From positions 36,631 through 100,630 of the forward strand of contig CAWUKD010000001.1 of assembly GCA_963922815.1 (NCBI GenBank): DNA of 64,000 nucleotides, given 5' to 3'. Source of the stretch: an uncultured Gammaproteobacteria bacterium (GTDB lineage: Bacteria > Pseudomonadota > Gammaproteobacteria > Steroidobacterales > SZUA-146). Below the pieces are notes generated by a model that worked only from the letters and a program-made list of their open reading frames with translations, searched no databases and was not told the DNA's origin. The position numbers and the translations under genes are program-made. Shown in pieces: positions 2,844 through 57,314 of this stretch; the first letter of the stretch is position 1; the number at the start of each line of letters is the position of its first letter.

Positions 2844-5432
2844 TTAGCGTTGCAACAGGAGCACGAGCTCCCGTACTCCATTGTGGGTGGTGACCACATC
2901 CGGTTGATTGTCTCCATTGAGGTCTCCAACGGCGAGCTGCCCAGGCCTATCGGCGCCCATAAAGTGTGCTTTGCGAAACAGTCCATCACCAGAGCCCAAC
3001 AGCACAACGACATTGTCGTCGACCGGATTGTTGTCGATCCTATTTGTTGCCACCAAGTCCTGAACCAGGTCGCCGTTCAGGTCGGCAACCGCGATGGAAC
3101 CCAGATCAATGTCAGTGTAGGGGGTGTTTATCGTCGACGGGAAGCCGCCATCACCGTCACCAATGAACAATCTCAGGGACCCCGTCGTGTAGACGATGGC
3201 CACGTCCAAAACTTGATCGCCATCAAGATCTTCAATGGTGTAGGACTTTACCGCGAAATCTGTACTGTAAACTACAGGATCCTGGAAGCTGCCGTTGCCA
3301 ACACCCATTAATACCGAGATGACGCCAGCTCCACCCGGTCCGGAGCCATTGACCGCGATCAGATCTGGGATTGCGTCGCCATTCAGGTCCTGGATTTCCA
3401 CTCCTAGTGGTTCAATCCCGGAACCAATATCCAGTTGAGACGCAACCTGAAACTGGCCATCGCCATCACCCAAGAGTATGGAGATGTCATTGGTCAGTGT
3501 GTTCGCTGTAACAATATCGGGAAGAGCATCGTCGTTGATATCACCAATAGCTACTGACTCTGGCGACTCACCAACCAAAAATATCCTCTCAGGCTGATAA
3601 AGGCCTTCGCCAACGCCAAGAAAAACCGATACATCATTGGTGTCGATATTGGCGGCAACCAGATCTGCTATGTTGTCGGCGTTCACGTCCGCGATAGCAA
3701 CTGAGCCCGGGTCGCCTGTGCGCAGTGTAGGCAGGATGCGCTGGAACTCGCCAGCTCCGTCTCCGCGGAACACGGTTATCTTTTTGGCTGCCCTGCTGGT
3801 GGTGACCATATCAAGATTCTGATCCCCGTCGATGTCACCAAGTGTAATGGAGTCCGGTCGATTGATGTCGCTTATGGATTTCCAAGTCTGGACACCGCCG
3901 CTGAGAGTACCCGGCCACACGGCTATGGTATCGCGCAGCCGCAGCGCGCCGACGACATCGGGAATTGAATCGCCGTTCATGTAGCCCAGGGCAATGGCAA
4001 TTGACGAGTTTCTAGCACCCGTGTTAAAAACCTGGGGCGGCTCAAAACCGCCGTCGCCAATGCCCTTAGCTACCGAAACCCGCCCAAAGCTCCCCGAATC
4101 GAACGAAGTGCTTGCCATGACTAAATCCGGGATCGTGTCAGCGTTCATATCACCTATTGCCAGCCCGAATAAAAAACCGCCGCCTGGGTCCACCACAGGT
4201 GCCGGTAAAAAACTACCGTCTCCATTTCCAAGGAGAATTGAAACGTCGTTAGAGCTGCGATTTTGGGTGACGAGATCCGGCACTGAATCGCCGTTCAGAT
4301 CGGCAATTTCGACAGCCTCTGGATAGTTTCCAACACTGAAGGTTAAGGTTATCAGGAAGCCCCCTTCACCATTTCCCAATAACACCGAAACCGTATTATT
4401 CGAGTTTGCTGTGACAACGTCCAACATCGAGTCATCGTTGAGATCGGCTACGGCCACCGCGTTGGGCGAAGGCCCGACGCTGGCTAACCACGCCACCTGA
4501 AAAGTGCCGTCTCCATTTCCGATCAGAACGGATATCTCGTCCGTGTTGCGAGCGGTGGTGAACAGATCTGGAATGTTATCGCCGTTCAAATCTCCAATTG
4601 CCACAGACACTGGCTCGGGGTCAACACTGATTGCCACGGGCGCCTGAAAACCGCCGAAGCCGTTACCAAACACTATCGCCACCTCGTCGGCTTGTGCGTT
4701 AGCCGTTATGATGTCCAATATAGTATCGCCATTCAGATCGCCGATCGCCATGGCATTTGGCCGGTTCCCTACCGTATAGTTGACCGCGGTGCCTAAGCCG
4801 CCGTCGCTGTCACTCAGGAGCACGCTCAAGTTAGACGAGAACGAGTAGGTGTTAACTACATCCGGCCGACCATCGTTGTTAAAGTCACCGATCGCGACTC
4901 TATTTGGGTTGTTGCCAACTGAATACACGGTACCGGGGAACATCTCGTGCAGCGCGACGGGAACAGCCGGGCACGCGTTGTTGGCCAAACCACTCGGACC
5001 AGGAGCACCAAAAAAGCTCGTTGTCATGATACTTAGATCTAAAAAGTTGACATTGCCGTCACCGTTGAGATCCGCATCCGGGTCGAAGCCGAAAAACACC
5101 GACGTCATCATGGCCAGATCCAAAAAGTTGATCGCACAGTCGTTATTGAGGTCGGCATCACAAACATTGCCGATGCCATCGAAGTCCGAATCACGCTGTT
5201 GGAGGTTTGCGATGTTCAAGCAATTGTCGAGGGAATCGTCGATCCCGTCACCATCTAAATCTCCTGCAACCACCATTACGACCATCGCATCGTTAGTTGG
5301 GAGGGCTGATGCTGTGTGCGATAAGCCGATCAGCGAAATCAGAATCGTCATCGCGTACGCCGCAATGACAACAATAGATCGGTAACGCACGTCTGTGCCA
5401 GAAAGATAAAGCCAATGTGCGTTTGACGACAT
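2844..5432 (-). CDS. Secreted FG-GAP/VCBS-repeat protein, paralog B, same architecture
   Basis: Track ORF 2844..5531. The internal ATG at 5432 (MSSNAHW..) sits just before the hydrophobic segment IVVIAAYAMTILISLIGLSHTASA, removes the overlap with the upstream gene and gives 862 aa. Module: DLDGDG..DNC..QRDSDFDGIGNVCDADLNNDC..DLNGDGNVNFLDL..PGPSG. 14 FG-GAP loops counted. Confidence 0.85.
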   Translation of the reverse strand: MSSNAHWLYLSGTDVRYRSIVVIAAYAMTILISLIGLSHTASALPTNDAMVVMVVAGDLDGDGIDDSLDNCLNIANLQQRDSDFDGIGNVCDADLNNDCAINFLDLAMMTSVFFGFDPDADLNGDGNVNFLDLSIMTTSFFGAPGPSGLANNACPAVPVALHEMFPGTVYSVGNNPNRVAIGDFNNDGRPDVVNTYSFSSNLSVLLSDSDGGLGTAVNYTVGNRPNAMAIGDLNGDTILDIITANAQADEVAIVFGNGFGGFQAPVAISVDPEPVSVAIGDLNGDNIPDLFTTARNTDEISVLIGNGDGTFQVAWLASVGPSPNAVAVADLNDDSMLDVVTANSNNTVSVLLGNGEGGFLITLTFSVGNYPEAVEIADLNGDSVPDLVTQNRSSNDVSILLGNGDGSFLPAPVVDPGGGFLFGLAIGDMNADTIPDLVMASTSFDSGSFGRVSVAKGIGDGGFEPPQVFNTGARNSSIAIALGYMNGDSIPDVVGALRLRDTIAVWPGTLSGGVQTWKSISDINRPDSITLGDIDGDQNLDMVTTSRAAKKITVFRGDGAGEFQRILPTLRTGDPGSVAIADVNADNIADLVAANIDTNDVSVFLGVGEGLYQPERIFLVGESPESVAIGDINDDALPDIVTANTLTNDISILLGDGDGQFQVASQLDIGSGIEPLGVEIQDLNGDAIPDLIAVNGSGPGGAGVISVLMGVGNGSFQDPVVYSTDFAVKSYTIEDLDGDQVLDVAIVYTTGSLRLFIGDGDGGFPSTINTPYTDIDLGSIAVADLNGDLVQDLVATNRIDNNPVDDNVVVLLGSGDGLFRKAHFMGADRPGQLAVGDLNGDNQPDVVTTHNGVRELVLLLQR

Positions 5433-5502
5433 CCTGCCCTGTCTTAGAGATAAACAGGTCATCTTCAAGTACTCCATTCCATTCCTCCCGGCCCCGTCTC
5501 GT

Positions 5503-8085
5503 TCAGGGTTGCAGCACAACAGTGACGGCATCGTCCAGTGAATTAATGAACACCAGATCTGGACGCGAATCGCCGTTCAAATCGCCGATTGCCGGGCGAA
5601 CAGCGGACGTATCGGCAGCAAATCGAAGCGCTGCCAGAAAGTTGCCTTCACCGTCGCCAAGATAGACACTGAAAGTGCCCTCGCCGGTTAGAACAATATC
5701 TGGAATATCGTCGTCGTTTACATCCTGAATGACCGCCCCCGACGTTATATAAGGCGCGTCGTAGGTCTGAACTGTGTAGGTAAGTCCATTCCCTGTGCCC
5801 AGCGCCACAGCGTAGTGACCGTCCTCTTCCATGAAAAAATTAGTCGGGCTGGTGGCGAGCAGGTCTGGAATATTATCAGCATTAAAATCGCCAATGGCGA
5901 CAGCAAAAGGAGGATAGTTGGTGTTGGTCGGCCAACCAGCCTGAAAGCTGCCATCCCCGTTTCCCAGTAGTACCAACAAGTGGGCAATGCTGACGTTCCC
6001 CACAACCAGGTCAGCGATTTGATCCCCATTAAGGTCGCCAGTGGCCAAATCGCCCGTTCTTCCAAATCCGGCATAGTATGTTGCTGGCGAGCCGAAGCTT
6101 CCGTCGCCATTGCCGAGCATAATTGACACATAACTGTCTGAGCCCGAACTCGCCAGATCAGGAACCCCGTCGCCATCAAAATCGGATACCACTACATAGC
6201 CGCCTCCGGCCGGATAGGATTGAGCAGTTTGCATGCCACCTTCGCCATCGCCCAGAAACACCGATACGTCATTAGAGAACGCATTTGCCGTGACCACGTC
6301 CGGGATCTCGTCGCCGTTAAGATCACTAATTTTGACAGAACGTGGATCGCCACCAGTGTCGAACCACTCCTCAGGCTGGAAGCTGCTGTCGCCGTTGCCC
6401 AGCAAGACAGAGATGTCATTCGAATCCCGATTTGCCGTAACAAGATCTGGAACATCGTCACCATCAAGATCACCCATGGTGACAGATGCCGGCCGAATAC
6501 CAGTTCGGAACGATTGCGGAACAACAAAACCGCCATCGGCCCCTCTGGTTAGAATGATCAAGCTTGTGGCTGCAGCAACCACGTCAGTAATGCCGTCGCC
6601 ATTCAGGTCAGCGATGTCCACATGCCACGCTCTGTTACCGAGGTGGGCGGGATGCGCGTCCTGGAACTGGCCGTCGCCAAGTCCCAGCATAGACCAAACA
6701 TCATTGTCGCCGCCGACGATCAGATCAGGAACACCGTCGTTGTTTAATTCTCCTATCTTGATGGTACGTGAAATATCGCCCACCTCGATCGTAGGGGCCG
6801 GTTGGAAGCTCATGCCGCCGTCGCCCAGCAAGATCGTAATCGTCTCGATTCCAGGACCGGTATCAGGCTCGATGCTGGAGACCACGATGTCGAGGATTGA
6901 ATCATCGTTAAGATCACCCAGCGCCAACTGACGTAACGAACTCAAACTGGCTAATGTAATTAACATCGGCGCCTGAAAACTGCCATCGCCGTTGCCCACT
7001 AACACCGAAAAATGGTTTGAGTTAGTCTGGCTCGAGACACTTCTCAGCGTGACTAAATCCGGGATTTCGTCGCCATCAATGTCCCCAATTGTTACTGTAC
7101 CCACTCGGTCACCAGCAGGAAACGAAATCGCCGGATCAAAGTCGCTCTTACCATTTCCAAGCAATACCGACACGTTGTCGTCATTGATGTTGGCCGTTAC
7201 AATATCGGGTACGTCGTCGCCGTTGAGGTCTCCAACAGCCAGAGAAACCGGGGAGTTACCCACGGGCCTGTCAAAGGTCGTCTGGAAGTCGCCGTCGCCA
7301 GTACCAAGTAATATCGAGACATCACGTGACCCTTGATTCATCGCCACGAGATCCACAATTTCGTCACCATTCAGGTCACCGGCGAAAAGCTCCATTGTAT
7401 AGTTCCCGGCACCGAAGTATCGCGCGGGTCCAAACGAACCCGCCCCGTCGTTAAAGAATATGGCCACTGTGTCTGAGTCCAATGTCGGCGTTGCCATGTC
7501 GAGCGTACCGTCGCCGTCCAGGTCTTCGATGACTACCCACCTTGTCTGACCAACGACATCGTGCCGGTAGTTGGGGTAGAGCGCCTGGCCGTCGAGCGGT
7601 GGTATAGCGCACGCGCTGCCGGGGACGCCGCTTGGTCCGGGCACGCTATAGAAATCCCTCTTCATAATGCTAAAATCCAGGAAGTTGACCGTGCCGTCGC
7701 CGTTGAAATCTTCTTCCGGATCCGATGATGATAAAAACTCGGACGACAGTCGATCAAAATCCTCGAAGTTGATTATGCAGTCGTTGTTCAGGTCTGCATC
7801 GCAGGCGTTACCAATGCCATCTCCGTCTGTGTCCCTCTGAGCCGAATTTGCGATAAGCAGGCAGTTGTCGCTGGCATCGGCCACGCCGTCGCTATCTGTG
7901 TCGACAAGACGAGCCGATAAATTGATGTTGTGAGGCTTAGTCGCGAATTCGATGCCTTCTACAGGAGTGCTCAATAGCAAGCTCACCATTAGCGGACAGG
8001 CTAAAAACAGTAAGCTGGCTCTACGTATTTTCGACTTAACAGTAGTAAAAACGCACGTGCGACAAACATGGTCGATCGATTGCAT
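5503..8085 (-). CDS. Secreted FG-GAP/VCBS-repeat protein, paralog C, same architecture (first gene of the trio)
   Basis: Track ORF 5503..8160. The ATG at 8085 (MQSIDH..) gives 860 aa; starts at 8145 or 8160 are also possible. Signal-like KSKIRRASLLFLACPLMVSLLLSTPVEG. Module: DTDSDG..DNC..QRDTDGDGIGNACDADLNNDC..DFNGDGTVNFLDF..PGPSG. 14 FG-GAP loops counted. Confidence 0.85.
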   Translation of the reverse strand: MQSIDHVCRTCVFTTVKSKIRRASLLFLACPLMVSLLLSTPVEGIEFATKPHNINLSARLVDTDSDGVADASDNCLLIANSAQRDTDGDGIGNACDADLNNDCIINFEDFDRLSSEFLSSSDPEEDFNGDGTVNFLDFSIMKRDFYSVPGPSGVPGSACAIPPLDGQALYPNYRHDVVGQTRWVVIEDLDGDGTLDMATPTLDSDTVAIFFNDGAGSFGPARYFGAGNYTMELFAGDLNGDEIVDLVAMNQGSRDVSILLGTGDGDFQTTFDRPVGNSPVSLAVGDLNGDDVPDIVTANINDDNVSVLLGNGKSDFDPAISFPAGDRVGTVTIGDIDGDEIPDLVTLRSVSSQTNSNHFSVLVGNGDGSFQAPMLITLASLSSLRQLALGDLNDDSILDIVVSSIEPDTGPGIETITILLGDGGMSFQPAPTIEVGDISRTIKIGELNNDGVPDLIVGGDNDVWSMLGLGDGQFQDAHPAHLGNRAWHVDIADLNGDGITDVVAAATSLIILTRGADGGFVVPQSFRTGIRPASVTMGDLDGDDVPDLVTANRDSNDISVLLGNGDSSFQPEEWFDTGGDPRSVKISDLNGDEIPDVVTANAFSNDVSVFLGDGEGGMQTAQSYPAGGGYVVVSDFDGDGVPDLASSGSDSYVSIMLGNGDGSFGSPATYYAGFGRTGDLATGDLNGDQIADLVVGNVSIAHLLVLLGNGDGSFQAGWPTNTNYPPFAVAIGDFNADNIPDLLATSPTNFFMEEDGHYAVALGTGNGLTYTVQTYDAPYITSGAVIQDVNDDDIPDIVLTGEGTFSVYLGDGEGNFLAALRFAADTSAVRPAIGDLNGDSRPDLVFINSLDDAVTVVLQP

Positions 8086-47934: not shown

Positions 47935-50391
47935 TCAGAGCAAGCCGCTGGGACCCGGCGGTAACAAAAAGAATTCGCCGAGCAGTTCAAAGTCGAGAAA
48001 ATCCACCTTGCCGTCGCCGTTGAAGTCGGCGTCCTCATCATCAGACTGAAAGCGCTGTGCAAACAAAGCTATATCGACAAAGTTGGTGACCTGATCATCA
48101 TTAAGGTCCGTATCGCAAGCGTTCCCGAATCCATCCGCATTGCTGTCTCGCTGATCGCTATTGGCCCGATCCAGACAGTTGTCCGCCGTATTGGCAACAC
48201 CATCAAGATCGCTATCGGCCTGCGCCGCTACTCCGAGGGTTAGTCGCGTTGGGCTCAGACCCACGGCATCCGGCACCAGCAACACACTGCCGTAATAAGG
48301 CCCATCCTGTGCGCTTGCCATATCGAACACAACGTCGATAGCTTGTTCCTCGCCGGCGTCGAGCGTAAAACTTTGCGGAATAGCCGAAACGATTGGGCCC
48401 GCCTGATCGGTCTCCACCACTACCGTCCAGCTAGCAGGCGCCACGGCCTTGACCGTGCGAGACCAGGAGCATTCGTTTACGCAGTTCAGATCAACCAGTC
48501 CGGCCAAATTCATGCGCGACGGCTGACCGCCCTGAGCGGGGTTCGCCGCTTCAAACCCGGCGATCGTTTCGTTCAGTAATAACCCGGCCTGAACCGCAGC
48601 CGCCACGTCGATGCGACCGCCGCCGTAATCAAAGGGAGTGGTCGGATCATCTTCAAATTGCTCGTCCAATGGACCCACACCGGTGGTCATCAACGCTGAC
48701 AGCACTTCAGCGTCGGACCAATCAGGCCTGGCCGATTTAATCAGGGCTATCGCACCGCCACCGGGCCCCGCTGCCGGACCGGTCGCCACCTTGAACGACG
48801 CTTCCCCGGTTGGAACAATGACATCAATCGACGGTACGGCAACCGAAGGGGCCAGATAGTCAAGCCCCAGCACCGGGCCCCGGCTGCTCGCGCCGGAAAC
48901 ACGATCGGCCAGCTCCGGATCAATGGGCGCGTCGTTAAGCGTGATAGAGGCTGCATGCCCGCTTCCGCTGGCAAGCCAGGTCCGCAGTAAAGTAGAGTCT
49001 GCGGCATTCAGATGAATACCGGGAAACGGGAAGAAATCCGCGTGTACAGAATCAAAGCCGCCGACCACATTAGCGAGCACCATGCCACCGGCACCGGAAT
49101 CCAGTGCGTTCTGGGCTTTTTGTATGCGTGCAATCTGACCGCGATCACAGACCAGAATTTCACCGTTAAGCGTGCCAGGAGGAAACGGCTCAAGGCACTG
49201 CGCAGGGTCAGCAACCGGCACATCGAGACTACCGGCGTACACAATGTTCGCGGTAATTGGTCCGCCGAGAGAACCGCCCAACAAATCACCGGGAGGTGGC
49301 GTATCACCGCCGCTAAAGTTTGTCAGCACCTTGAAATTATTGGTTCGGCCATGGGTGCTCGAGATAAACGTTGCCGTCCACGGAGCGGCCAGACTGAGGC
49401 CCAGCGTTCCGGGTTCAGGTCCGCCGTTGCCAGTTATGTATGCCAGGCTGACGCCGTTGGCCCTGAGTGAAAGACCCGCCAGCCCGTAGAGGCCGTCCCA
49501 GGCCGTACTGATTGACGAGCCGATAAAATGCACGAGCACGTCAACGTCATCGTTGATGGCCTGCTCGAATGCGCTTAGCACACTGGTTGCTGCGCAGCTG
49601 GATTCACACGTTCGATACACGATCAGATTGGCATGAGGTGCAACCCCGGTAACGATCGGAAGCCCAATATTGCCAAGACTGGTCTCGCTCAACCGGTTGC
49701 CCGCAGCCTGACTGGCCGCCGAGTTGCTGGCACCGTCAAGCTCTTCCGAGGTCAGCTGTGAATCATTGCTGAACGTGTAGCGCCCGATCAGCTTGCTGTT
49801 GCACAGGACTTCCGGTGCGGTAAGGCACTCTCCCAGATACACGCCGTCGCCCAGCGGATTGGTGTGCGTGTAACCGTCATCGCCGGTAGCCGCAAAGGCA
49901 GGATGACTGCCGCTGATTCCGGTGCCGGTAATACCGATAACAACACCTTCTCCAAGGTGTCCACTATCATTCGTTGCCGAGCCGTCCCAGACTTCGTTAG
50001 CACGAATCAAATCCACGACAGGATCACCGCTACCGCCCGCACCATTGCGTTCCACCGTGGCCGTCAGTTCGGTCAATTCACGGGGCGATAGAGACGGAGT
50101 CAGCAGTTCGAACACTTCGTCTTTGATAACGGCTTGCACGCCTGGATGGCGACTAAGCCTGGACGCCTCGACGTCGTCCATCAGCGTCGAAAAACCATTG
50201 ATGACGTGTCGGTACTCCCGCACGACTTTTAGTTCGCGTCCAAGATCGGCGTTAAGCTGTGATCGCACCGACGCCGCATTTGCCGACGATTCAAGATGGA
50301 CGATGTAGCTGGCTTCCTCCGCCTGAACGGCACACGTCCCGGCAAGAGCCAACACGCAGGCTACGATGGTGTTTCTTAATGACTGAATCAT
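47935..50391 (-). CDS. Subtilase (peptidase S8, pyrolysin/plant-type with I9 propeptide and PA insert) homolog with Asp/His/Ser all substituted, plus a C-terminal TSP3/dockerin-like module; predicted pseudo-protease
   Basis: Signal peptide ..AGTCAVQA. I9-like YIVHL..VVREYRHVINGFS. Asp box reads VVIGITGTGI (expected ..DTG/DSG..). His box reads DGASNSAASQAAGN (expected DGHGTHTAS.AAGN). Ser box reads VATGPAAGPGGGAIALIK (expected SGTSMA.PHV.G). The oxyanion Asn is kept (ITGNGGP). PA-like ILVCDRGQIARIQK. The last 93 aa match the module of the FG-GAP trio. Confidence 0.85.
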   Translation of the reverse strand: MIQSLRNTIVACVLALAGTCAVQAEEASYIVHLESSANAASVRSQLNADLGRELKVVREYRHVINGFSTLMDDVEASRLSRHPGVQAVIKDEVFELLTPSLSPRELTELTATVERNGAGGSGDPVVDLIRANEVWDGSATNDSGHLGEGVVIGITGTGISGSHPAFAATGDDGYTHTNPLGDGVYLGECLTAPEVLCNSKLIGRYTFSNDSQLTSEELDGASNSAASQAAGNRLSETSLGNIGLPIVTGVAPHANLIVYRTCESSCAATSVLSAFEQAINDDVDVLVHFIGSSISTAWDGLYGLAGLSLRANGVSLAYITGNGGPEPGTLGLSLAAPWTATFISSTHGRTNNFKVLTNFSGGDTPPPGDLLGGSLGGPITANIVYAGSLDVPVADPAQCLEPFPPGTLNGEILVCDRGQIARIQKAQNALDSGAGGMVLANVVGGFDSVHADFFPFPGIHLNAADSTLLRTWLASGSGHAASITLNDAPIDPELADRVSGASSRGPVLGLDYLAPSVAVPSIDVIVPTGEASFKVATGPAAGPGGGAIALIKSARPDWSDAEVLSALMTTGVGPLDEQFEDDPTTPFDYGGGRIDVAAAVQAGLLLNETIAGFEAANPAQGGQPSRMNLAGLVDLNCVNECSWSRTVKAVAPASWTVVVETDQAGPIVSAIPQSFTLDAGEEQAIDVVFDMASAQDGPYYGSVLLVPDAVGLSPTRLTLGVAAQADSDLDGVANTADNCLDRANSDQRDSNADGFGNACDTDLNDDQVTNFVDIALFAQRFQSDDEDADFNGDGKVDFLDFELLGEFFLLPPGPSGLL

Positions 50392-50643: not shown

Positions 50644-51588
50644 CTAATCATTGGCGGCAATGTGTCGATCTATCAACCGCACAAAGCGTGGCAGTAATTC
50701 CTTCGGCAGATCGTGACCCATACCCTCAAACAGCTTGAGTTCAGCGCCATCGATACAGTTGGCGGTGTCGATGCCACCGGCCACCGGAATGAGCACATCG
50801 GCCTTGCCGTGAATCACCAGGGTTGGCCGATCAATAGACGACAGCATTTCCCGCCGGTCTCCGTTGTGCACGATGGCCGCCAACTGGTGCCGATAGCCGG
50901 GTGGGTATAACGAACGTCTTATCGAGCGCATCAGGCGCTGTCTCAGCTCCTGCTCGCTCGGCATGTAATCCGGACTGCCAATTATTGACCAGGTTCTTAG
51001 TCCGTGACTGATCAGCTCTTCTTCATCGGCGCCCTGAGGTCGCGTGAGCAACTGCCGGGTCGCGCGCCAGCTGGTGCCCGGCAGCTTGGGGTTGCCGGTT
51101 GTTGACATGATGGACGTTAACGAACGAATGCGCTCCGGAAATTGCGCCGTCACGATTTGCGAAATCATGCCGCCCATTGACGCACCAACGATATGAGCCG
51201 CGTCGATATCGAGCGCATCAAGCACGCCAATCGTGTCCTCAGCCATATCATGCAATGTGTAAGGGACATTTACCGACATGCCCAGTTGCGACCGGAACAA
51301 GATGCGCGGGATCGAAATGGGTTTCTCAAACGGAATTTTCTCGGAGAGTCCGATATCGCGATTGTCGAAACGAATCACCCGATAGCCGCACTGGGCAAGG
51401 CCATGGCAAAACTCGTCTGGCCAGGCAATCATCTGCGTACCCAGTCCCATTACCAGAACCAGGGGCGTATCGTCGGGATTGCCAAACTCTTCGTAGGCAA
51501 TTTTCAGATTGTTGGCCACCAGAAACTGTTCGTTTCGTTCCTCTTCCATCGCAGCGTGTGTCGCAGGGTCCGTCATTGTTCGATTCAA
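50644..51588 (-). CDS. Alpha/beta hydrolase
   Basis: LVLVMGLG..FDNRDIGLS and the nucleophile elbow GASMGG. It starts 15 nt after the WS/DGAT stop. Confidence 0.75.
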   Translation of the reverse strand: MNRTMTDPATHAAMEEERNEQFLVANNLKIAYEEFGNPDDTPLVLVMGLGTQMIAWPDEFCHGLAQCGYRVIRFDNRDIGLSEKIPFEKPISIPRILFRSQLGMSVNVPYTLHDMAEDTIGVLDALDIDAAHIVGASMGGMISQIVTAQFPERIRSLTSIMSTTGNPKLPGTSWRATRQLLTRPQGADEEELISHGLRTWSIIGSPDYMPSEQELRQRLMRSIRRSLYPPGYRHQLAAIVHNGDRREMLSSIDRPTLVIHGKADVLIPVAGGIDTANCIDGAELKLFEGMGHDLPKELLPRFVRLIDRHIAAND

Positions 51589-51603
51589 TTCCTGGCTGGC
51601 CGT

Positions 51604-53373
51604 TTAATTCGGGTCGACTTTCGACATCTTGCGCGCACGCTTGCGAATCACAGGCTTTTTGAATGCACGTTTGGGTTTCACTGCAGGCGGACTGCTGGTC
51701 GCTTCCGTTTTATCGTCTGCAGCCTTTACAGATGCTTTGCTGCTTGACGCTTTCGTCGCACCTTTTTTCTTGCTCGCCGATTTGCCCGAGGCCTTTTTCT
51801 TTGTGGCAGCACGTTTCCCCGACGCTTTTTTGGCTGACGATTTTTTTGCCGTCGCTTTCTTGCTGGTCGCTTTGCGGCCGATCACTTTCTTTTTCGCCGC
51901 CGGTTTCGTTGTTTTCGCGCTCACCTTACTGACCGCTTTGCCGTCTTCATCGGCTTCGACAATATTCCGGGTGGCGTCATAAAGCTCGTCGAATGATTCC
52001 TGCAGACACTGCGCGTAAAACGCCGGGTCCGGCATCATTTCGCGGCAGCAACATACGGCAATATTAAACGTGCCACAGTAGCTGCCAATGGCGTGGAACA
52101 GTCCTGTCCCGTCAATGGGCGGCCCCATACCAAAGCTGCTGATCATGCGGGCGCCGGTAAAATATAGCGGTACCTGCGGACCGGGTACGTTAGTGATCAC
52201 ACAGTTATAAAGCGGCTTGATCCGATTGACCAGCCCCATGCGACTCGCCAGTCGTGCCGCCGACGCGGTCAGGGTTGACGGTATGAACTGCGCGTAGTCC
52301 GTCATGCTCTTGGCACCTATGGCATTGGTCAGTTCTTTGGCGTGACGCGTACCCTTACTTACCGACAGCAGGCGCTCGATCGGGTCTTCGATATGACTGC
52401 CTATACGGACCGTCATTTGAGACACCTGATTACCCGCCGTACCGAGCTTGTCTTTGGTGCGCACGTTAATGGGCGCCATTGCTGCCAGCGACTTTCGGGG
52501 CAATTCGCTCTTGCTCTCAAGATATTTGCGTAGCCCGCCTCCACAAATGGCAAGCGCCACATCGTTAACCGTTACACCTTCAATCGAGCTTTTAATGGCC
52601 TTGATGTCTTTGAGCTTGAAGAGCACCGAGTCGAACACACGGTGAGGGGAAACATTGGTATTGAACCGGGTGCGCGGCAAGTCGGTAACGCGATTGATAT
52701 TGCCTGCGGCCATGCCGGTAACAAACCTGGTCAGCCCGGGCAGCGTATTGCGCGCGACTGAAAACACCCGCAGCGGTGTTTTAATGGTGTTGATCTGAGC
52801 GCGCCAGAGCAGTTCGAGGTTGGAAGGCATGCGTTCGGTTTCAATCGGACGAACTTCAGGATATTTTTCAGGTGACGGTTCAAGATCATGAATAATGGAC
52901 GCAATCTCCACCCCGGATGCGCCGTCTATGGCCGCGTGGTGCATCTTGCTTAATACGGCGAAACAGCCTGGCGGGTATCCCTCGACATTATCGAGCCCTT
53001 CGATAATGTACATTTCCCACAGCGGATGGGCCCGATCGAGCGGTCGTGCGTGCAGACGGGATACCTGAATACAGAGCTGGCGCCAGTCGCCGGGTTTGGG
53101 TAGCGCGATGTGCCGGATATGAAACTCCGGGTCAAAGTCGCCATCGGCTCGCCAGTAGGGGTGATCAAGACTCAGGGGGACTTCAACCAGCGTATTGGTC
53201 AGTGCGGCAATGCGCTGTGCACGAGCGGTCAGGTTGGCCAGAATTTGCTTGAACGTGACGTGACCGCCTTCCGCCGTAGACGGATCGTAGATGGACAGCC
53301 CTCCAATGTGCATGGGTGTATTGGCTGTTTCCAGATACAAAAACGATGCGTCGAGTCCACTGAGCTGCTGCAC
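51604..53373 (-). CDS. Wax ester synthase / diacylglycerol acyltransferase (WS/DGAT) with a ~104-aa C-terminal Lys/Ala/Ser-rich histone-H1-like tail
   Basis: MQQLSGLDASFLYLE..PMHIGGL and the active-site HHAAIDGASG. The C-terminus reads AKTTKPAAKKKVIGRKATSKKATAKKSSAKKASGKRAATKKKASGKSASKKKG..KPKRAFKKPVIRKRARK. Confidence 0.88.
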   Translation of the reverse strand: MQQLSGLDASFLYLETANTPMHIGGLSIYDPSTAEGGHVTFKQILANLTARAQRIAALTNTLVEVPLSLDHPYWRADGDFDPEFHIRHIALPKPGDWRQLCIQVSRLHARPLDRAHPLWEMYIIEGLDNVEGYPPGCFAVLSKMHHAAIDGASGVEIASIIHDLEPSPEKYPEVRPIETERMPSNLELLWRAQINTIKTPLRVFSVARNTLPGLTRFVTGMAAGNINRVTDLPRTRFNTNVSPHRVFDSVLFKLKDIKAIKSSIEGVTVNDVALAICGGGLRKYLESKSELPRKSLAAMAPINVRTKDKLGTAGNQVSQMTVRIGSHIEDPIERLLSVSKGTRHAKELTNAIGAKSMTDYAQFIPSTLTASAARLASRMGLVNRIKPLYNCVITNVPGPQVPLYFTGARMISSFGMGPPIDGTGLFHAIGSYCGTFNIAVCCCREMMPDPAFYAQCLQESFDELYDATRNIVEADEDGKAVSKVSAKTTKPAAKKKVIGRKATSKKATAKKSSAKKASGKRAATKKKASGKSASKKKGATKASSSKASVKAADDKTEATSSPPAVKPKRAFKKPVIRKRARKMSKVDPN

Positions 53374-53550: not shown

Positions 53551-54246
53551 TTACCCATCAAGCGCAAACTGCACGGCGCGGGCTGCGTGCAGGCCGGTCG
53601 TATCGTAGAGCGGCACATCCGTGTCGTCCTGACCGATCAACAACGCGATTTCCGTACATCCCAGTATGACAGCCTCGGCGCCGCTGGCCTTCAGCGACCC
53701 GACTATCTGCAAATACGCCTTCGCCGATTCGTCACGGATTTCTCCGAGGCACAGCTCATTGAAAATCACATCATGGATCAGGTTCCGGTCATCCGCTTCC
53801 GGAACAACAACATCAATGCCGAATTTATCTTGCAGCCTGCCTTTGTAGAAGTCCTGCTCCATGGTGAAGCGCGTACCCAGCAAACCCACCCGACCGATAT
53901 TGTCGGCAACGAGTTTTTCCGCCGTTGCATCCGCAATATGCAGCATGGGAATCGCCACCGCGGACTCGATAGCAGGCGCTACTTTGTGCATGGTATTCGT
54001 ACACAGAACGATGCACTCGGCGCCGCCTGCCTCTACCGACCTGGCAGCATTCGCCAGAGTGCTACCCATTGCCTCCCAGTCACCTTCACGCTGCTGCTTT
54101 TCGATCTCGTCAAAATCCACGCTGTACAGGCAGATTTTCGCCGAATGAAAACCTCCCAGCGCGGCTTTGACGCCCCGGTTTATCTGGGTGTAGTAACTCG
54201 CGGTGGATTCCCAGCTCATCCCGCCTATCATGCCGATGGTTTTCAT
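53551..54246 (-). CDS. Aspartate/glutamate racemase family protein
   Basis: MKTIGMIGGMSWEST, and the two catalytic-Cys contexts LCTNTMH and LGCTEI. Confidence 0.85.
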   Translation of the reverse strand: MKTIGMIGGMSWESTASYYTQINRGVKAALGGFHSAKICLYSVDFDEIEKQQREGDWEAMGSTLANAARSVEAGGAECIVLCTNTMHKVAPAIESAVAIPMLHIADATAEKLVADNIGRVGLLGTRFTMEQDFYKGRLQDKFGIDVVVPEADDRNLIHDVIFNELCLGEIRDESAKAYLQIVGSLKASGAEAVILGCTEIALLIGQDDTDVPLYDTTGLHAARAVQFALDG

Positions 54247-54728
54247 TGTTCTACCTCAGTGGTCACGCCCGACGAAGGATTGATATCGAAATGTAATACT
54301 TCCTCGCGAGTTCCGAGCTTTTCGTATAACGCAATAGCCGGTGCATCTTCAGGACCCGTATCCGCCTGAACGAATACTACATACGCGCCCCGCGCTCTGG
54401 CGATTTTCTTAAGTTCATCGATCAAAGCAGTAGCAACACCTTTACGACGGTGGGCCTCGAGAACAGCAAGGTCGTAAAGATAGATCTCGCTGCGCTCCTG
54501 CTCAAACTTTTTGAGTTCATAGGCCGCCAGACCGCCTGCGACTTCGTTGTCGACAGAAGCAATCAATGCAATAAACGTGTCATCTGCGAGGAGCGCCCGT
54601 AAGTAATCAGGGCCTGGCCGGTTTGAGGAATAGTTTTGCTCATCTTCAAATGCCTGACTGAAGGCGTCCAGCAACATACCCATCAGGTCTGGATCAGTTG
54701 GATGAATTCGTTGAACTCTGGTGTCCAT
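54243..54728 (-). CDS. GNAT acetyltransferase closely resembling aminoglycoside 3-N-acetyltransferase AAC(3)-I
   Basis: KFEQERSEIYLYDLAVLEAHRRKGVATALI..ARGAYVVFVQAD..AIALYEKLGTREEVLHFDI is near-collinear with AAC(3)-Ia as I recall it ([60 protein letters not shown]). ATGA overlap with the racemase start. The track start is 54749. Confidence 0.8.
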   Translation of the reverse strand: MDTRVQRIHPTDPDLMGMLLDAFSQAFEDEQNYSSNRPGPDYLRALLADDTFIALIASVDNEVAGGLAAYELKKFEQERSEIYLYDLAVLEAHRRKGVATALIDELKKIARARGAYVVFVQADTGPEDAPAIALYEKLGTREEVLHFDINPSSGVTTEVEQ

Positions 54729-54788
54729 GTCAGTTTTATCCCGCTCCATGTCCCTTAGTAAGATAGCTTGCCAGGTTCGACGATCGAT

Positions 54789-55079
54789 TCAGACGACCGT
54801 TTCCACCAGAAAGATCATTCCGGAGCCCGTCATCTGACCACCCTTTTCTACCAGCAAAGTAACGCCTTCGTGATCGTTAATCCGAAACTCGTCCCTGATG
54901 TGTTCCCACTGGAGTTCGCCCGCCCGCTGCAGCGACGCTAAAAACTCGAATTCCTTTGTGCTCTCAATGGCCTTATCCGCGGCAATCGATCGAATCGCAC
55001 AGTCACCGGCATCCGGCCCGCCTGACATCACGATAAACCCCAAATGGTCGCCATGTATGTTTGATATAGCGTACGTCAT
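54789..55079 (-). CDS. Hypothetical 96-aa cytoplasmic protein, translationally coupled to the sensor kinase
   Basis: Its ATG overlaps the kinase TAA (TAATG). No signal peptide or TM segment, and no family recognised. Confidence 0.5.
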   Translation of the reverse strand: MTYAISNIHGDHLGFIVMSGGPDAGDCAIRSIAADKAIESTKEFEFLASLQRAGELQWEHIRDEFRINDHEGVTLLVEKGGQMTGSGMIFLVETVV

Positions 55080-56593
55080 TAGTGTCCTGTCAGATTCGTC
55101 TGGCGAACAGCGGGTATGGTCATGCGAACCCGCAGGCCAGAAGGTTCAACATTTTGGGTTTCAACTCGCCCGCCGTGCTGCCTCATCGCGCGTGCCACGA
55201 TGGCCAGACCCAGGCCATAGCCCTGACCTGGCGCGCTGTTTGACGCGCGATAGAACGGCTCAAAGAGTGCGGCATGTTCATTCGGAGGAACTCCAGGCCC
55301 CTGATCCTGAACATCCAGTACGGCGACTCCGTCTTCAGAACGACACGATACGGTAACCGCGCCGCCCTCGGGGCTGTACTTGATGGCGTTGCGCACCACG
55401 TTCTCAATGGCCCGATCCAGCAGCTCACCTTTTGAACTGACCGAAACGTCATGATTCATCGTATCGAACTCAATTCGTACGTTTGCTGCCTGTGCATCCA
55501 TGGCGACGCGCTCTGCCGTTTCCTCAACAAGCTGTGCCAGTGATACGACCGTTTCCGCTATCGGGTTTGCGTCATTCTCGCTTCGTGCCAGCTGCAGCAT
55601 TTCATCCATCAATTTATCAAGGCGGTCAATTTCAAGGTCTGCACGATCAATATAGGTATCGTCCTGCGTATCCGCACCTCTTGCCAGTTCCAGTGCAAAC
55701 CGCAACCTCGCCAGCGGCGAACGCATTTCATGAGACAAATGATGCAGCAATCGATCGCGACCGCGAATCATTTCCTCAACGCCATCGGCCATGTGATCGA
55801 AATCTCGGGCCACGCGACCCATATCGTCGCCACGTGTCGACAAGTGCGTTCCAACGCGCGCCGAGAGGTCGCCGTTGGCGAATTGATTGATAGCGGCCTG
55901 TACCGACCTCAAAGGCGCAGTCAGATTGCGAGCCACAACCCATCCCGCCACGGCGATGCCCACCATTAACAAACCCAGATACACCAGCAGCGTCGTCCGC
56001 GTGGCGCCATGCAACAGGTTGCCTGACTCGTCGGGCAGGCCACCGGAACTGCCTCCGGGGCCGCCACCAGGTTCGCCACCCGGGCCGCCCGGAGGACGAC
56101 CCGGTCCACCGGGTCTGTGTTCCGGCCCTCCCGGCCCACCAGCCCGCCTTCCCGGCCCGACTCGATCCAGCGAGAGTGGTCTTTGGTGCACTATGAGCGC
56201 CGTGTCAGGGGGGATACCCTCTCCAATTAACGGCAGGGAGTGCAATTGCTGGCCGTTACGGGGGAGCTCAATGGTGGATCGTTGACCAAGAGACAATCGC
56301 GTACTGGAGTCCATTAGCGGGCGCGGCATTTCGCTGTCGGCAGTCTCGCCGTTTTCAAACAAGAACAGAGACAGGCCCCGTGCTGAATACTTGCGGTTAA
56401 GCGCCCGCACTCCCGATGCGCCATCGGTTAGATAAGTCTGCCTGGCCAGCGCCTGCAGCGCATCGAGATCGATGTCGTGTTCCACCACGGTCTCACTGTC
56501 TATGAGCAAACGTGTACCGAAAATACTGATGCCCAGAACGATAAAATTGGCCAGCATAAAGGCGAGAAGCAGACGCACGTAGAAGGTGTTCAC
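55079..56593 (-). CDS. CpxA-like sensor histidine kinase (2 TM, periplasmic domain with a Gly/Pro-rich insert, HAMP, HisKA, HATPase)
   Basis: H-box LSHEMRSPLARL, N-box VRNAIKYSP, G-boxes DQGPGVP and GYGLGLAIV. A GTG at 56593 lies 4 nt after the regulator stop. The track start 56623 would overlap the regulator gene. Confidence 0.85.
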   Translation of the reverse strand: MNTFYVRLLLAFMLANFIVLGISIFGTRLLIDSETVVEHDIDLDALQALARQTYLTDGASGVRALNRKYSARGLSLFLFENGETADSEMPRPLMDSSTRLSLGQRSTIELPRNGQQLHSLPLIGEGIPPDTALIVHQRPLSLDRVGPGRRAGGPGGPEHRPGGPGRPPGGPGGEPGGGPGGSSGGLPDESGNLLHGATRTTLLVYLGLLMVGIAVAGWVVARNLTAPLRSVQAAINQFANGDLSARVGTHLSTRGDDMGRVARDFDHMADGVEEMIRGRDRLLHHLSHEMRSPLARLRFALELARGADTQDDTYIDRADLEIDRLDKLMDEMLQLARSENDANPIAETVVSLAQLVEETAERVAMDAQAANVRIEFDTMNHDVSVSSKGELLDRAIENVVRNAIKYSPEGGAVTVSCRSEDGVAVLDVQDQGPGVPPNEHAALFEPFYRASNSAPGQGYGLGLAIVARAMRQHGGRVETQNVEPSGLRVRMTIPAVRQTNLTGH

Positions 56594-56597
56594 AGAC

Positions 56598-57314
56598 TTA
56601 GTCCCCGCCGCCGGTGTCAGCATTGAGCGTCAGAATATAACCCGCGCCCCGAACCGCATCGATGACGGGTGCTTCGGTCCCGGCCGCCCCGAGTTTCTTG
56701 CGCAGGCGGCTGATATGAACGTCAATGGCGCGATCTTCCCGTTCCAGCTCGCGGTGCAGGCCCTGTCGGGTAAGCTCTTCGCGACTGATCACCGTACCCG
56801 CCCGTTGCATTAATACGGCGAGCACGTCAAATTCTGCGCCGGTCAGACCAAGCTCGGCATCGCCTGACGTCACCAGCCGGCTGGCTGGCGTCAACGACAG
56901 GCAACCTGCAGTCAGCGTCGAGGGTGTTACCACTTCCTGGTGGCCACGCCGGCGTACCAGCGCATTGATTCGTGCGAGCAGTTCGCGAGGCAGACAAGGT
57001 TTGGACAGATAATCGTCTGCGCCCAGTTCCAGGCCCACCACACGGTCTACCGGCTCTCCGCGCCCCGATAGCATGAGCACCGGCAGAGTGTGGTTCTCGC
57101 GGATACGACGCAGTGCCGTAAGGCCGTCGATACCCGGCAACATGACATCCAGCACCAGTACGTCAATATCAGCCTGTCCGAGCGCCAGGCGCTCAATCGC
57201 CGCCTCCGCCGTCAGAACGGTGGAAGCACTGAGCCCCTGCCCGCCGAGATAGTCGACCAGCAGGTCGCCGAGCTCCGCATCGTCATCCGCTATCAGTACC
57301 TTTGTCTTCGTCAT
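56598..57314 (-). CDS. OmpR-family response regulator, CpxR-like
   Basis: VLIADDD..LDVMLPGIDG..DRVVGLELGADDYLSKP..DRAIDVHISRLRKKL..GAGYIL is collinear with E. coli CpxR as recalled. Confidence 0.88.
   Translation of the reverse strand: MTKTKVLIADDDAELGDLLVDYLGGQGLSASTVLTAEAAIERLALGQADIDVLVLDVMLPGIDGLTALRRIRENHTLPVLMLSGRGEPVDRVVGLELGADDYLSKPCLPRELLARINALVRRRGHQEVVTPSTLTAGCLSLTPASRLVTSGDAELGLTGAEFDVLAVLMQRAGTVISREELTRQGLHRELEREDRAIDVHISRLRKKLGAAGTEAPVIDAVRGAGYILTLNADTGGGD

Follow-up and report, generated by a model that had tools for sequence, protein, structure and literature searches.

A 64,000-nt stretch of DNA from an uncultured gammaproteobacterium of the Steroidobacterales lineage SZUA-146 (contig CAWUKD010000001.1, positions 36,631 to 100,630; the whole stretch is called the window here) encodes a wax ester synthase/diacylglycerol acyltransferase (WS/DGAT) that carries a long lysine-rich C-terminal tail. 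Our comparisons show that this tail is not the peculiarity of one gene but a common and labile trait of a large WS/DGAT subfamily of marine and soil bacteria, and far more frequent than a preliminary description of the DNA had supposed. The tail is robust and widespread; its function we infer by analogy, the tethering of a storage granule by a lysine-rich tail being an existing concept. By that analogy the tail most likely tethers the enzyme electrostatically, and without specificity, to a polyanion of the cell, and the polyanion that we tentatively favor, over anionic membrane or polyphosphate, is the chromosomal DNA of the nucleoid.

The WS/DGAT coding sequence occupies positions 51604 to 53373 on the reverse strand and specifies 589 amino acids, with a GTG start and a TAA stop at 51604-51606; the identical 589-aa protein (P0001) is present in public protein collections. 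Pfam searches identified WS_DGAT_cat (PF03007) at residues 4 to 273 (E = 9.5e-67, 226 bits against a gathering score of 23.6) and WS_DGAT_C (PF06974) at residues 314 to 464 (E = 1.8e-30, 106.3 bits against a gathering score of 20.7), and the NCBIfam model TIGR02946 matched residues 4 to 467 with 432.5 bits (cutoff 309.95). The active-site motif HHAAIDG, a regular-expression match to HHxxxDG, lies at residues 145 to 151 (52921-52941, reverse strand), and H145, H146, D150, and G151 are unchanged throughout a 34-sequence alignment. The catalytic core (residues 1 to 468; 51970-53373, reverse strand) has a net charge of ∼0, and residues 1 to 480 also have a net charge of 0. This core aligns with two solved WS/DGATs, AtfA from Acinetobacter baylyi (7NXG; residues 2 to 460, E = 7e-54) and the Marinobacter enzyme (6CHJ; residues 3 to 463, E = 1e-51), which share its two-domain acyltransferase fold family and its HHxxxDG motif but apparently little sequence identity. 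In an AlphaFold2 model built from the 34-sequence alignment, the core is folded and its final helix comprises residues 450 to 481. The closest named relatives are from Arenicella metagenome-assembled genomes (MAGs), at 74 to 78% identity. Thus, by every sequence criterion tested, the protein belongs to the WS/DGAT family and has an intact motif, as the preliminary description had proposed, and it appears to be an active enzyme.

Both solved enzymes end a few residues past the core (463 and 455 aa) and are tail-less, whereas the window protein continues for a further ∼109 residues that are predicted to be disordered and have a net charge of +34. This tail (residues 481 to 589; 51607-51933, reverse strand), delimited by composition and model confidence (pLDDT), contains 32 Lys, 6 Arg, 21 Ala, 16 Ser, 8 Thr, and 6 Pro residues, corresponding to 29% Lys and 19% Ala, and the AlphaFold2 model assigns residues 483 to 589 a pLDDT below 50 and no secondary structure. 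The earlier count of 37 basic residues in the final 104 proved exact (31 Lys and 6 Arg; net charge +33). The AKK/SKK/TKK repeats reported there hold as a low-complexity pattern, but they are irregular rather than tandem: Tandem Repeats Finder returned a single weak array of 15 nt × 2.2 copies. The Lys codons of the tail are a mixture of AAA (22) and AAG (10), and the longest run of A is 7. Slippage-prone tandem-repeat DNA was rejected as the origin of the tail on the basis of the weak array, the mixed codons, and the short A runs.

Comparison with the two closest relatives shows that the tail is translated. These proteins, P0002 (567 aa, from an NCBI MAG, locus L001) and P0003 (606 aa, from a Logan contig), share ∼91 to 92% identity with the window protein in the core and ∼35% identity in tails of differing length, and all three close with the invariant core KKP[VL]IRKRA[KR]KMSK of a conserved terminal peptide, KKPVIRKRARKMSK (residues 572 to 585; 51619-51660, reverse strand). 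Between the window and L001, which is an independent assembly, the 14 terminal codons differ by nine synonymous changes and one conservative R-to-K change. This pattern is that of a translated tail whose terminal peptide is under purifying selection. The peptide was not found in the other proteins and loci examined.

The same comparison bears on a possible artifact of annotation or assembly, in which a lost stop, or a frameshift into an A-rich spacer, would place the tail outside the protein. The complementary strand of the tail is also open (open reading frames [ORFs] 51629-51982 and 51663-51932), as is expected for low-complexity DNA. Against an artifact, P0002 and P0003 remain in frame through to the common terminal peptide, the changes in that peptide are nearly all synonymous, both other sense frames across the tail contain stops, the Lys codons are mixed with no A run longer than 7, and equivalent in-frame tails occur in hundreds of homologs. 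We therefore regard an artifact as very improbable, and read-through was dismissed on the shared frame and the synonymous pattern. An untranslated tail, which the preliminary description had named as one of the findings that would overturn its reading, was accordingly not borne out.

To determine how widespread the tail is among WS/DGAT homologs, a check that the preliminary description had suggested, we analyzed three sets of sequences. The closest comprised 120 clusters at 61 to 100% identity, mostly from Arenicella-like marine Gammaproteobacteria, in 115 of which the end of the core could be anchored. A polybasic tail of 8 to 137 residues, with a net charge of +4 to +31, was present in 114 of these 115 clusters, P0041 being the sole exception. 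A core-only search of 1.84 billion cluster representatives returned 16,122 homologs, and 134 full-length cores among the best 150 (35 to 72% identity) were examined; 65 of them carry a polybasic tail, the longest of 275 residues (P0266). A further tally gave polybasic tails for 110 of 112 close homologs and 66 of 140 distant ones. The third set consisted of 77 complete orthologs from species-representative genomes, cultured isolates included. Here 56 (73%) are tailed, and 16 have an extension of no more than 12 residues. The tailed taxa include Arenicella, Haliea and Halioglobus (Halieaceae), Woeseiaceae, Sphingomonas and Sphingorhabdus (Sphingomonadales), Parvibaculum, Sansalvadorimonas, and Acidimicrobiia. 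Across all relatives the tails range from 8 to 275 aa, and many have only 8 to 25 residues. On a neighbor-joining tree of 245 cores, the tail trait needs at least 45 changes, compared to 76 ± 4 with shuffled labels; it is thus phylogenetically structured yet very labile. At locus L011, a run of masked N (X in translation) lies in the tail-coding region (∼5400-5620), and the tail statistics for this locus are therefore unreliable.

What the tails have in common is charge. Pooled tails of the near clade have a histone H1-like composition of 34% Lys, 15% Ala, 11% Thr, 9% Ser, 6% Arg, and 5% Pro, with 3% acidic residues and 0.1% Phe, Tyr, and Trp combined, and in more distant tails Lys gives way to Arg, Ala, and Pro, in lineages that are apparently GC-richer. 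PAKKA/KPAA-type motifs occur in at least one copy in 20 of 183 related tails, with 12 copies in P0229 and 6 in P0134. Among 285 extensions of 8 to 160 residues, the net charge is +5 or more in 241 and −3 or less in 6. As residue usage and length vary while the charge stays, it is the charge that is conserved and not the sequence, and the comparison shows positive charge to be under selection across hundreds of lineages. A strict test of the last 25 residues gave the same picture relative to neighboring genes: 29 of 73 WS/DGAT ORFs are polybasic, compared to 13 of 430 neighboring ORFs (odds ratio 21, p = 1e-17), and most of those 13 look like spurious Arg-rich frames. Within the 64-kb window, a search of all six frames recovered the tail as the sole K-rich segment. 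A genome-wide habit of polybasic tails was ruled out by these two results.

These data also bear on whether the tail needs a specific partner at all. It might instead be an entropic bristle that keeps a hydrophobic enzyme soluble or unaggregated, a flexible spacer that presents the terminal peptide to a protein partner or protease, or a near-neutral low-complexity extension prone to mutation. Sequence and length turn over very fast, with at least 45 gains or losses on the 245-tip tree, P0041 is tail-less, and in 16 of the 77 genomes the extension does not exceed 12 residues; in addition, the lineage-specific terminal peptides (KKP[VL]IRKRA[KR]KMSK and KRKPKLTIVSAAE) and frequent -AA ends fit a role as linear motif or degron. 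However, a solubility tag would do equally well with acidic residues, yet there are ∼40 cationic extensions for each acidic one, a dearth that speaks against a generic solubility bristle. Moreover, the positive charge persists although lineages build it from different residues (Lys versus Arg, Ala, and Pro), tails are 21-fold enriched over neighboring genes, and the terminal motif is under purifying selection; together, these findings speak against neutrality. We consider a tail with no specific partner rather unlikely.

We rank a tether to the nucleoid first because the known proteins that tether granules to the nucleoid are built in this way, with a polycationic disordered tail attached to a lipid-binding module. 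The H1-like composition of the pooled tails and the PAKKA-type motifs of some relatives point in the same direction. In Rhodococcus jostii, C-terminal PAKKA motifs of the triacylglycerol (TAG) droplet protein MLDS bind DNA non-specifically and tether the droplets to the chromosome (PMC5504291). Like the window protein, MLDS has a lysine-rich C-terminal tail on a protein tied to neutral lipid. In Cupriavidus necator and Pseudomonas putida, the histone-like, lysine-rich C-termini of PhaM and PhaF, respectively, bind DNA and fasten granules of polyhydroxyalkanoate (PHA) to the nucleoid, and PhaM in addition binds the polymer synthase PhaC1 and activates it (PMC9049629). These proteins share the proposed logic of a granule-binding module plus a polycationic DNA tether. 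They differ in that the granule contains PHA rather than wax ester or TAG and in that the tether is a separate protein, unfused to the synthase. Similarly, MLDS and its relatives TadA and HBHA are actinobacterial proteins with a structural rather than an enzymatic role, whereas the tail described here is fused to a lipid-synthesizing enzyme and is found mostly in Proteobacteria. The tail shares with those of AlgP, PhaF, PhaM, and MLDS a disordered, Lys/Ala-rich, cationic make-up on a granule-related module, but not their tandem KPAA, AAKP, or PAKKA repeats.

According to the model that we tentatively put forward, the WS/DGAT core would reside on the lipid surface at the site of neutral-lipid synthesis, as the tail-less characterized enzymes do, and the tail would be a second, separate binding module that grips chromosomal DNA without sequence specificity. 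The synthase itself would then couple nascent wax-ester and TAG bodies to the nucleoid with no need for the separate adaptor that MLDS, PhaM, or PhaF provides elsewhere. The core supports a division of labor of this kind: its net charge averages −1.3 in tailed and −2.4 in tail-less proteins (Mann-Whitney p = 0.36; Spearman rho 0.11). As the charge of the core is equal with or without a tail, the tail would add a second binding property rather than replace the access of the core to lipid, and a tail that substitutes for a basic membrane-docking surface was set aside, tail-less relatives having no more basic cores.

Several observations weigh against a nucleoid tether. A homology search with the tail alone (112 aa) scored 789 candidates, none of which reached E ≤ 1e-3, and no sequence homology to MLDS, TadA, or HBHA was detected. 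With both histone-like profiles, HC2 (PF07382; 15.7 bits, cutoff 40) and hist_H1_lk_Burk (NF038053; 19.3 bits, cutoff 80), the protein scored far below threshold. The tail contains a single KPAAK, no PAKKA, and no tandem PAKKA or KPAA repeats, and compared with AlgP and PhaF it is richer in Ser and Thr and poorer in Pro; the AAKP/KPAA-type repeats of PhaF are regular, while the window tail is irregular and Ser/Thr-rich. The short tails of 8 to 25 residues in relatives would suit a polybasic membrane patch equally well, HBHA binds anionic phospholipids through its lysine-rich C-terminus (PMC6176652), and some of the domains that occupy the tail position in other WS/DGATs, described below, bind or process lipid. 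The likeness to histone H1 noted in the preliminary description therefore stands for composition and not for profile scores, and the resemblance to histone-like families is probably compositional rather than one of membership, although the tail may work like histone-like tails from outside those families. The proposed tether to a polyanion fits the cationic bias (241 versus 6 extensions), the predicted disorder, and the precedents of MLDS, PhaM, PhaF, AlgP, and HBHA; the choice of polyanion is purely what we infer.

The second candidate partner is anionic phospholipid, either phosphatidylglycerol and cardiolipin of the inner membrane or the monolayer of nascent lipid bodies. Binding there would lengthen the residence of the enzyme at the interface where the product phase is present along with diacylglycerol or fatty alcohol. 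Tails of 8 to 25 aa with a net charge of +5 to +12, as found in many relatives, are typical of polybasic membrane patches, and SCP2 and lipase-like hydrolases occur at the same junction. The tail-less Acinetobacter WS/DGAT, for its part, reportedly acts at the cytoplasmic membrane and at lipid bodies (work attributed to Waltermann et al. 2005 and Stoveken et al. 2005). The lysine-rich C-terminus of HBHA binds phosphatidylinositol and phosphatidylinositol bisphosphate and is needed for the formation of lipid inclusions (PMC6176652). However, with Phe, Tyr, and Trp at 0.1%, the tails are nearly devoid of the hydrophobic and aromatic residues with which basic clusters that bind membranes are usually combined, and an amphipathic membrane-targeting helix at the terminal motif was rejected, since the maximal hydrophobic moment of 0.68 was reached by 28% of shuffled sequences and the mean hydrophobicity is −0.78. 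The scarcity of hydrophobic and aromatic residues and the failed amphipathicity test argue against a classical membrane-inserting anchor. In addition, as tail-less cores are not more basic (p = 0.36), the core seems to reach the lipid surface unaided. Phospholipid binding is thus a possibility that we place below nucleoid DNA and regard as unlikely.

Other WS/DGATs carry further domains, several of them in place of or beyond a tail. In P0245, an SCP2 domain occupies the C-terminal junction, and the distant relatives P0216, P0236, and P0250 (whose cluster includes RLB74437.1 from a Deltaproteobacteria MAG) carry a C-terminally fused alpha/beta hydrolase of ∼270 to 300 aa of the PGAP1/palmitoyl-thioesterase/esterase type. 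Both of these add-ons bind or process lipid, which counts against a DNA partner. A folded HHH_5 domain lies in the tail position in L033 (∼5400-5730), L043 (∼5400-5720), and P0238, following a short basic or Pro/Ala-rich linker. It exceeds the cutoff of 27 bits in L033 (27.4) and L043 (27.9) but falls short of it in P0238 (22.9). Its closest relatives of solved structure are C-terminal parts of the 41-kDa subunit of complex I (9wqv_a, E = 3e-12) and of photosynthetic reaction-centre protein O (8yy9_O), a likeness that would favor phospholipid. Because these relatives sit in membrane complexes, the HHH-like domain decides for neither a DNA nor a membrane partner, and it likewise weakens the case for the nucleoid; as proof of DNA binding it was set aside as ambiguous, being barely over the Pfam cutoff. 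P0266 (743 aa) and its cluster member P0270 (748 aa) contain a ∼160-residue AKK-rich polybasic linker followed by two DUF1508 (YegP-like) domains (E = 3e-23), and P0152 (837 aa) combines an N-terminal SDR domain, a WS/DGAT, and a 55-residue polybasic tail, and may unite a reductase with an ester synthase. WS/DGAT–SCP2 fusions in Bacteroidota and alpha/beta-hydrolase neighbors are reported in a survey of WS/DGATs from marine sediment (PMC10351704). The Bacteroidota fusions have their module at the same C-terminal junction as the window protein, but SCP2 is a domain that folds and transfers lipid, while the tail is polycationic and predicted to be disordered.

A third candidate partner is polyphosphate granules or RNA and ribosomes, through which the tail would co-localize carbon and phosphate stores or drive condensates. 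In Pseudomonas aeruginosa, the H1-like disordered Lys/Ala/Pro-rich C-terminal domain of AlgP is required for the spatial organization of polyphosphate granules, namely their even spacing, and the net charge of +34 of the window tail is of similar magnitude to those of PhaF (+35) and AlgP (+55) as quoted in the same work (PMC9239181). AlgP and the window protein are alike in having a disordered C-terminal region with a large net positive charge. They differ in that AlgP is a non-enzyme of polyphosphate granules with 25 perfect KPAA repeats, while the window tail falls below the cutoffs of the H1-like profiles. For RNA, a weak local match of the tail to the lysine-rich C-terminus of the NCBIfam ValRS model shows that similar lysine-rich tails are present on RNA-handling enzymes. 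However, neither the window nor the related loci contain a gene link to polyphosphate or RNA metabolism, and the argument is one of analogy. We consider such a partner improbable. Overall, our ranking descends from nucleoid DNA through anionic phospholipid, a tail with no specific partner, and polyphosphate or RNA to an artifact.

The gene directly after the WS/DGAT, on the same strand, encodes an esterase/lipase-like alpha/beta hydrolase (50644-51588, reverse strand; 314 aa from a TTG start, 310 aa from the ATG at 51576), identified by Pfam Abhydrolase_1 (PF00561; E = 1.6e-20, 74.2 bits against a cutoff of 25.8). The intergenic gap of 15 nt given in the preliminary description presumes the TTG at 51588; orthologs align from the ATG, which gives 27 nt. 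This spacer (51577-51603, reverse strand) contains AGGA by inspection, and a search of its coding strand found no terminator-like site; the two genes are therefore probably co-transcribed. The translated hydrolase has a nucleophile elbow, G-A-S-M-G (51172-51186, reverse strand; residues 135 to 139 counted from the TTG), and the extended GASMGG is kept as G-[AI]-S-M-G-G in orthologs and aligns with GISMGG of 8PZG, "ORF17," the best solved relative (E = 2.3e-75 over residues 18 to 312). 8PZG is an unpublished entry; a 2026 preprint cites ORF17 as a metagenomic-library lipase. ORF17 and the EstT/EstX/RdmC esterase clade share the alpha/beta hydrolase fold, the GxSMGG elbow, and a GMGHDLP motif with the window hydrolase. 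It differs from EstT/EstX-type macrolide esterases in that all macrolide-esterase NCBIfam models scored far below their cutoffs, the best being NF052610 (171 bits against 420), followed by EstT (130.5 against 450) and EstX (124.7 against 600).

Related loci indicate that the linkage of this hydrolase to WS/DGAT is genuine but confined to some lineages. An ortholog lies immediately downstream of the WS/DGAT in L001 (73% identity) and in Arenicella xantha (L002; 62% identity), where the flanking genes are entirely different. In L003 and L004 the order is acyl-CoA synthetase, WS/DGAT, PGAP1/LCAT-like hydrolase, hydrolase ortholog (54% identity), and AraC regulator, while in L005 the ortholog (54% identity) is upstream of the WS/DGAT. 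Among the 77 named genomes, 12 have an ortholog (at least 45% identity) within 4 kb of the WS/DGAT; these 12 comprise Arenicella-like genomes and a set of alphaproteobacterial MAGs, and the Halieaceae and Sphingomonas are without the linkage. The PGAP1-type hydrolase that is fused in P0216, P0236, and P0250 is the separate gene directly after the WS/DGAT in L003 and L004, and the fused forms support a functional coupling of WS/DGATs with lipid hydrolases generally. Consistent with the mobilizing lipase envisaged in the preliminary description, which draws some support from the GASMGG elbow, the likeness to 8PZG, and the adjacency in several lineages, the co-transcribed hydrolase probably draws on the same pool of lipid as the WS/DGAT, in mobilization or remodeling.

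The tail-less P0041 (locus L006, 1-2650), the only such close homolog, also lacks the downstream Abhydrolase_1 gene. The 275 nt after its WS/DGAT stop were searched for remnants of the tail or hydrolase, and none were found; beyond them is an opposite-strand Palm_thioest-like hydrolase, which in A. xantha (L002) is placed beyond the Abhydrolase_1 gene. The joint absence of tail and hydrolase in L006 is a single case and may be a coincidence.

To our knowledge, the positioning, spacing, and inheritance of wax-ester and TAG bodies in Gram-negative bacteria are largely unknown. The known tethers, MLDS on actinobacterial droplets and PhaM and PhaF on PHA granules, are separate adaptor proteins. 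A tail fused to the synthase would be a compact solution to granule positioning, and most members of this WS/DGAT subfamily, which abounds in marine sediments, carry one. A broader proposal, which we hold with more doubt than the nucleoid tether itself, is that in a large and mostly uncultured proteobacterial branch (Arenicellales, Halieaceae, Woeseiaceae, and Sphingomonadales) and in some Acidimicrobiia the synthase might be its own nucleoid anchor, so that the chromosome would be the site where lipid bodies nucleate and would partition them, the terminal peptides would recruit a partner such as the co-transcribed lipase, and tail length would tune droplet number and spacing. WS/DGATs are also used in biotechnology for wax esters and biodiesel, and a natural tail affecting localization or solubility could be easily removed or transplanted. 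Further, the tails, which span lengths of 8 to 275 residues and have been gained and lost repeatedly, form a clean natural series for studying selection on charge versus sequence in disordered regions. In the literature searched, which was incomplete so that an earlier mention elsewhere is possible, no lysine-rich, disordered, or C-terminally extended WS/DGAT was described, and the words "lysine" and "disordered" are absent from the marine-sediment survey (PMC10351704). This agrees with the preliminary description, which was aware of no characterized WS/DGAT fusion of this kind. The combination of a known enzyme with a known type of tether tail thus seems not to have been characterized before.

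Two further observations concern the C-terminal ends of relatives. A second lineage-specific terminal peptide, K[RK]KPKLTIVSAAE, closes variable basic tails in L034, L040, L042, L050, and L053, which are from alphaproteobacterial and other MAGs; a hydrolase ortholog is directly downstream in four of these five loci. Separately, an -AA end occurs in 18 of 317 WS/DGAT relatives, compared to ∼3% predicted by the Ala content, and these ends resemble ssrA-like C-terminal degrons. They occur in L015, L017-L019, L022-L025, L031, L061, and others, mostly Halieaceae, and include the tail-less L017 (...MDLAA) and L024 (...LEAAA). Because the sequences are related, the enrichment may be simply inherited.

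Elsewhere in the window, ORFs for a 231-aa Asp/Glu racemase-like protein and a 168-aa GNAT acetyltransferase-like protein, judged by translation, lie directly upstream of the WS/DGAT (53551-54749, reverse strand); they are probably unrelated to it, as these neighbors are not kept in L001-L006. A 514-aa sensor histidine kinase ORF (55079-56623, reverse strand) contains a Gly/Pro-rich low-complexity insert, GPGRRAGGPGGPEHRPGGPGRPPGGPGGEPGGGPGGSSGG, and the local GC content at this ORF rises to 0.65 to 0.67 around 55800-56250. Finally, an 818-aa subtilisin-like protease ORF (47935-50391, reverse strand) has Asp-rich terminal repeats of calcium-binding appearance (DSDLDGVANTADNCLDRANSDQRDSNADGFGNACDTDLNDD ... 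DADFNGDGKVDFLDF).

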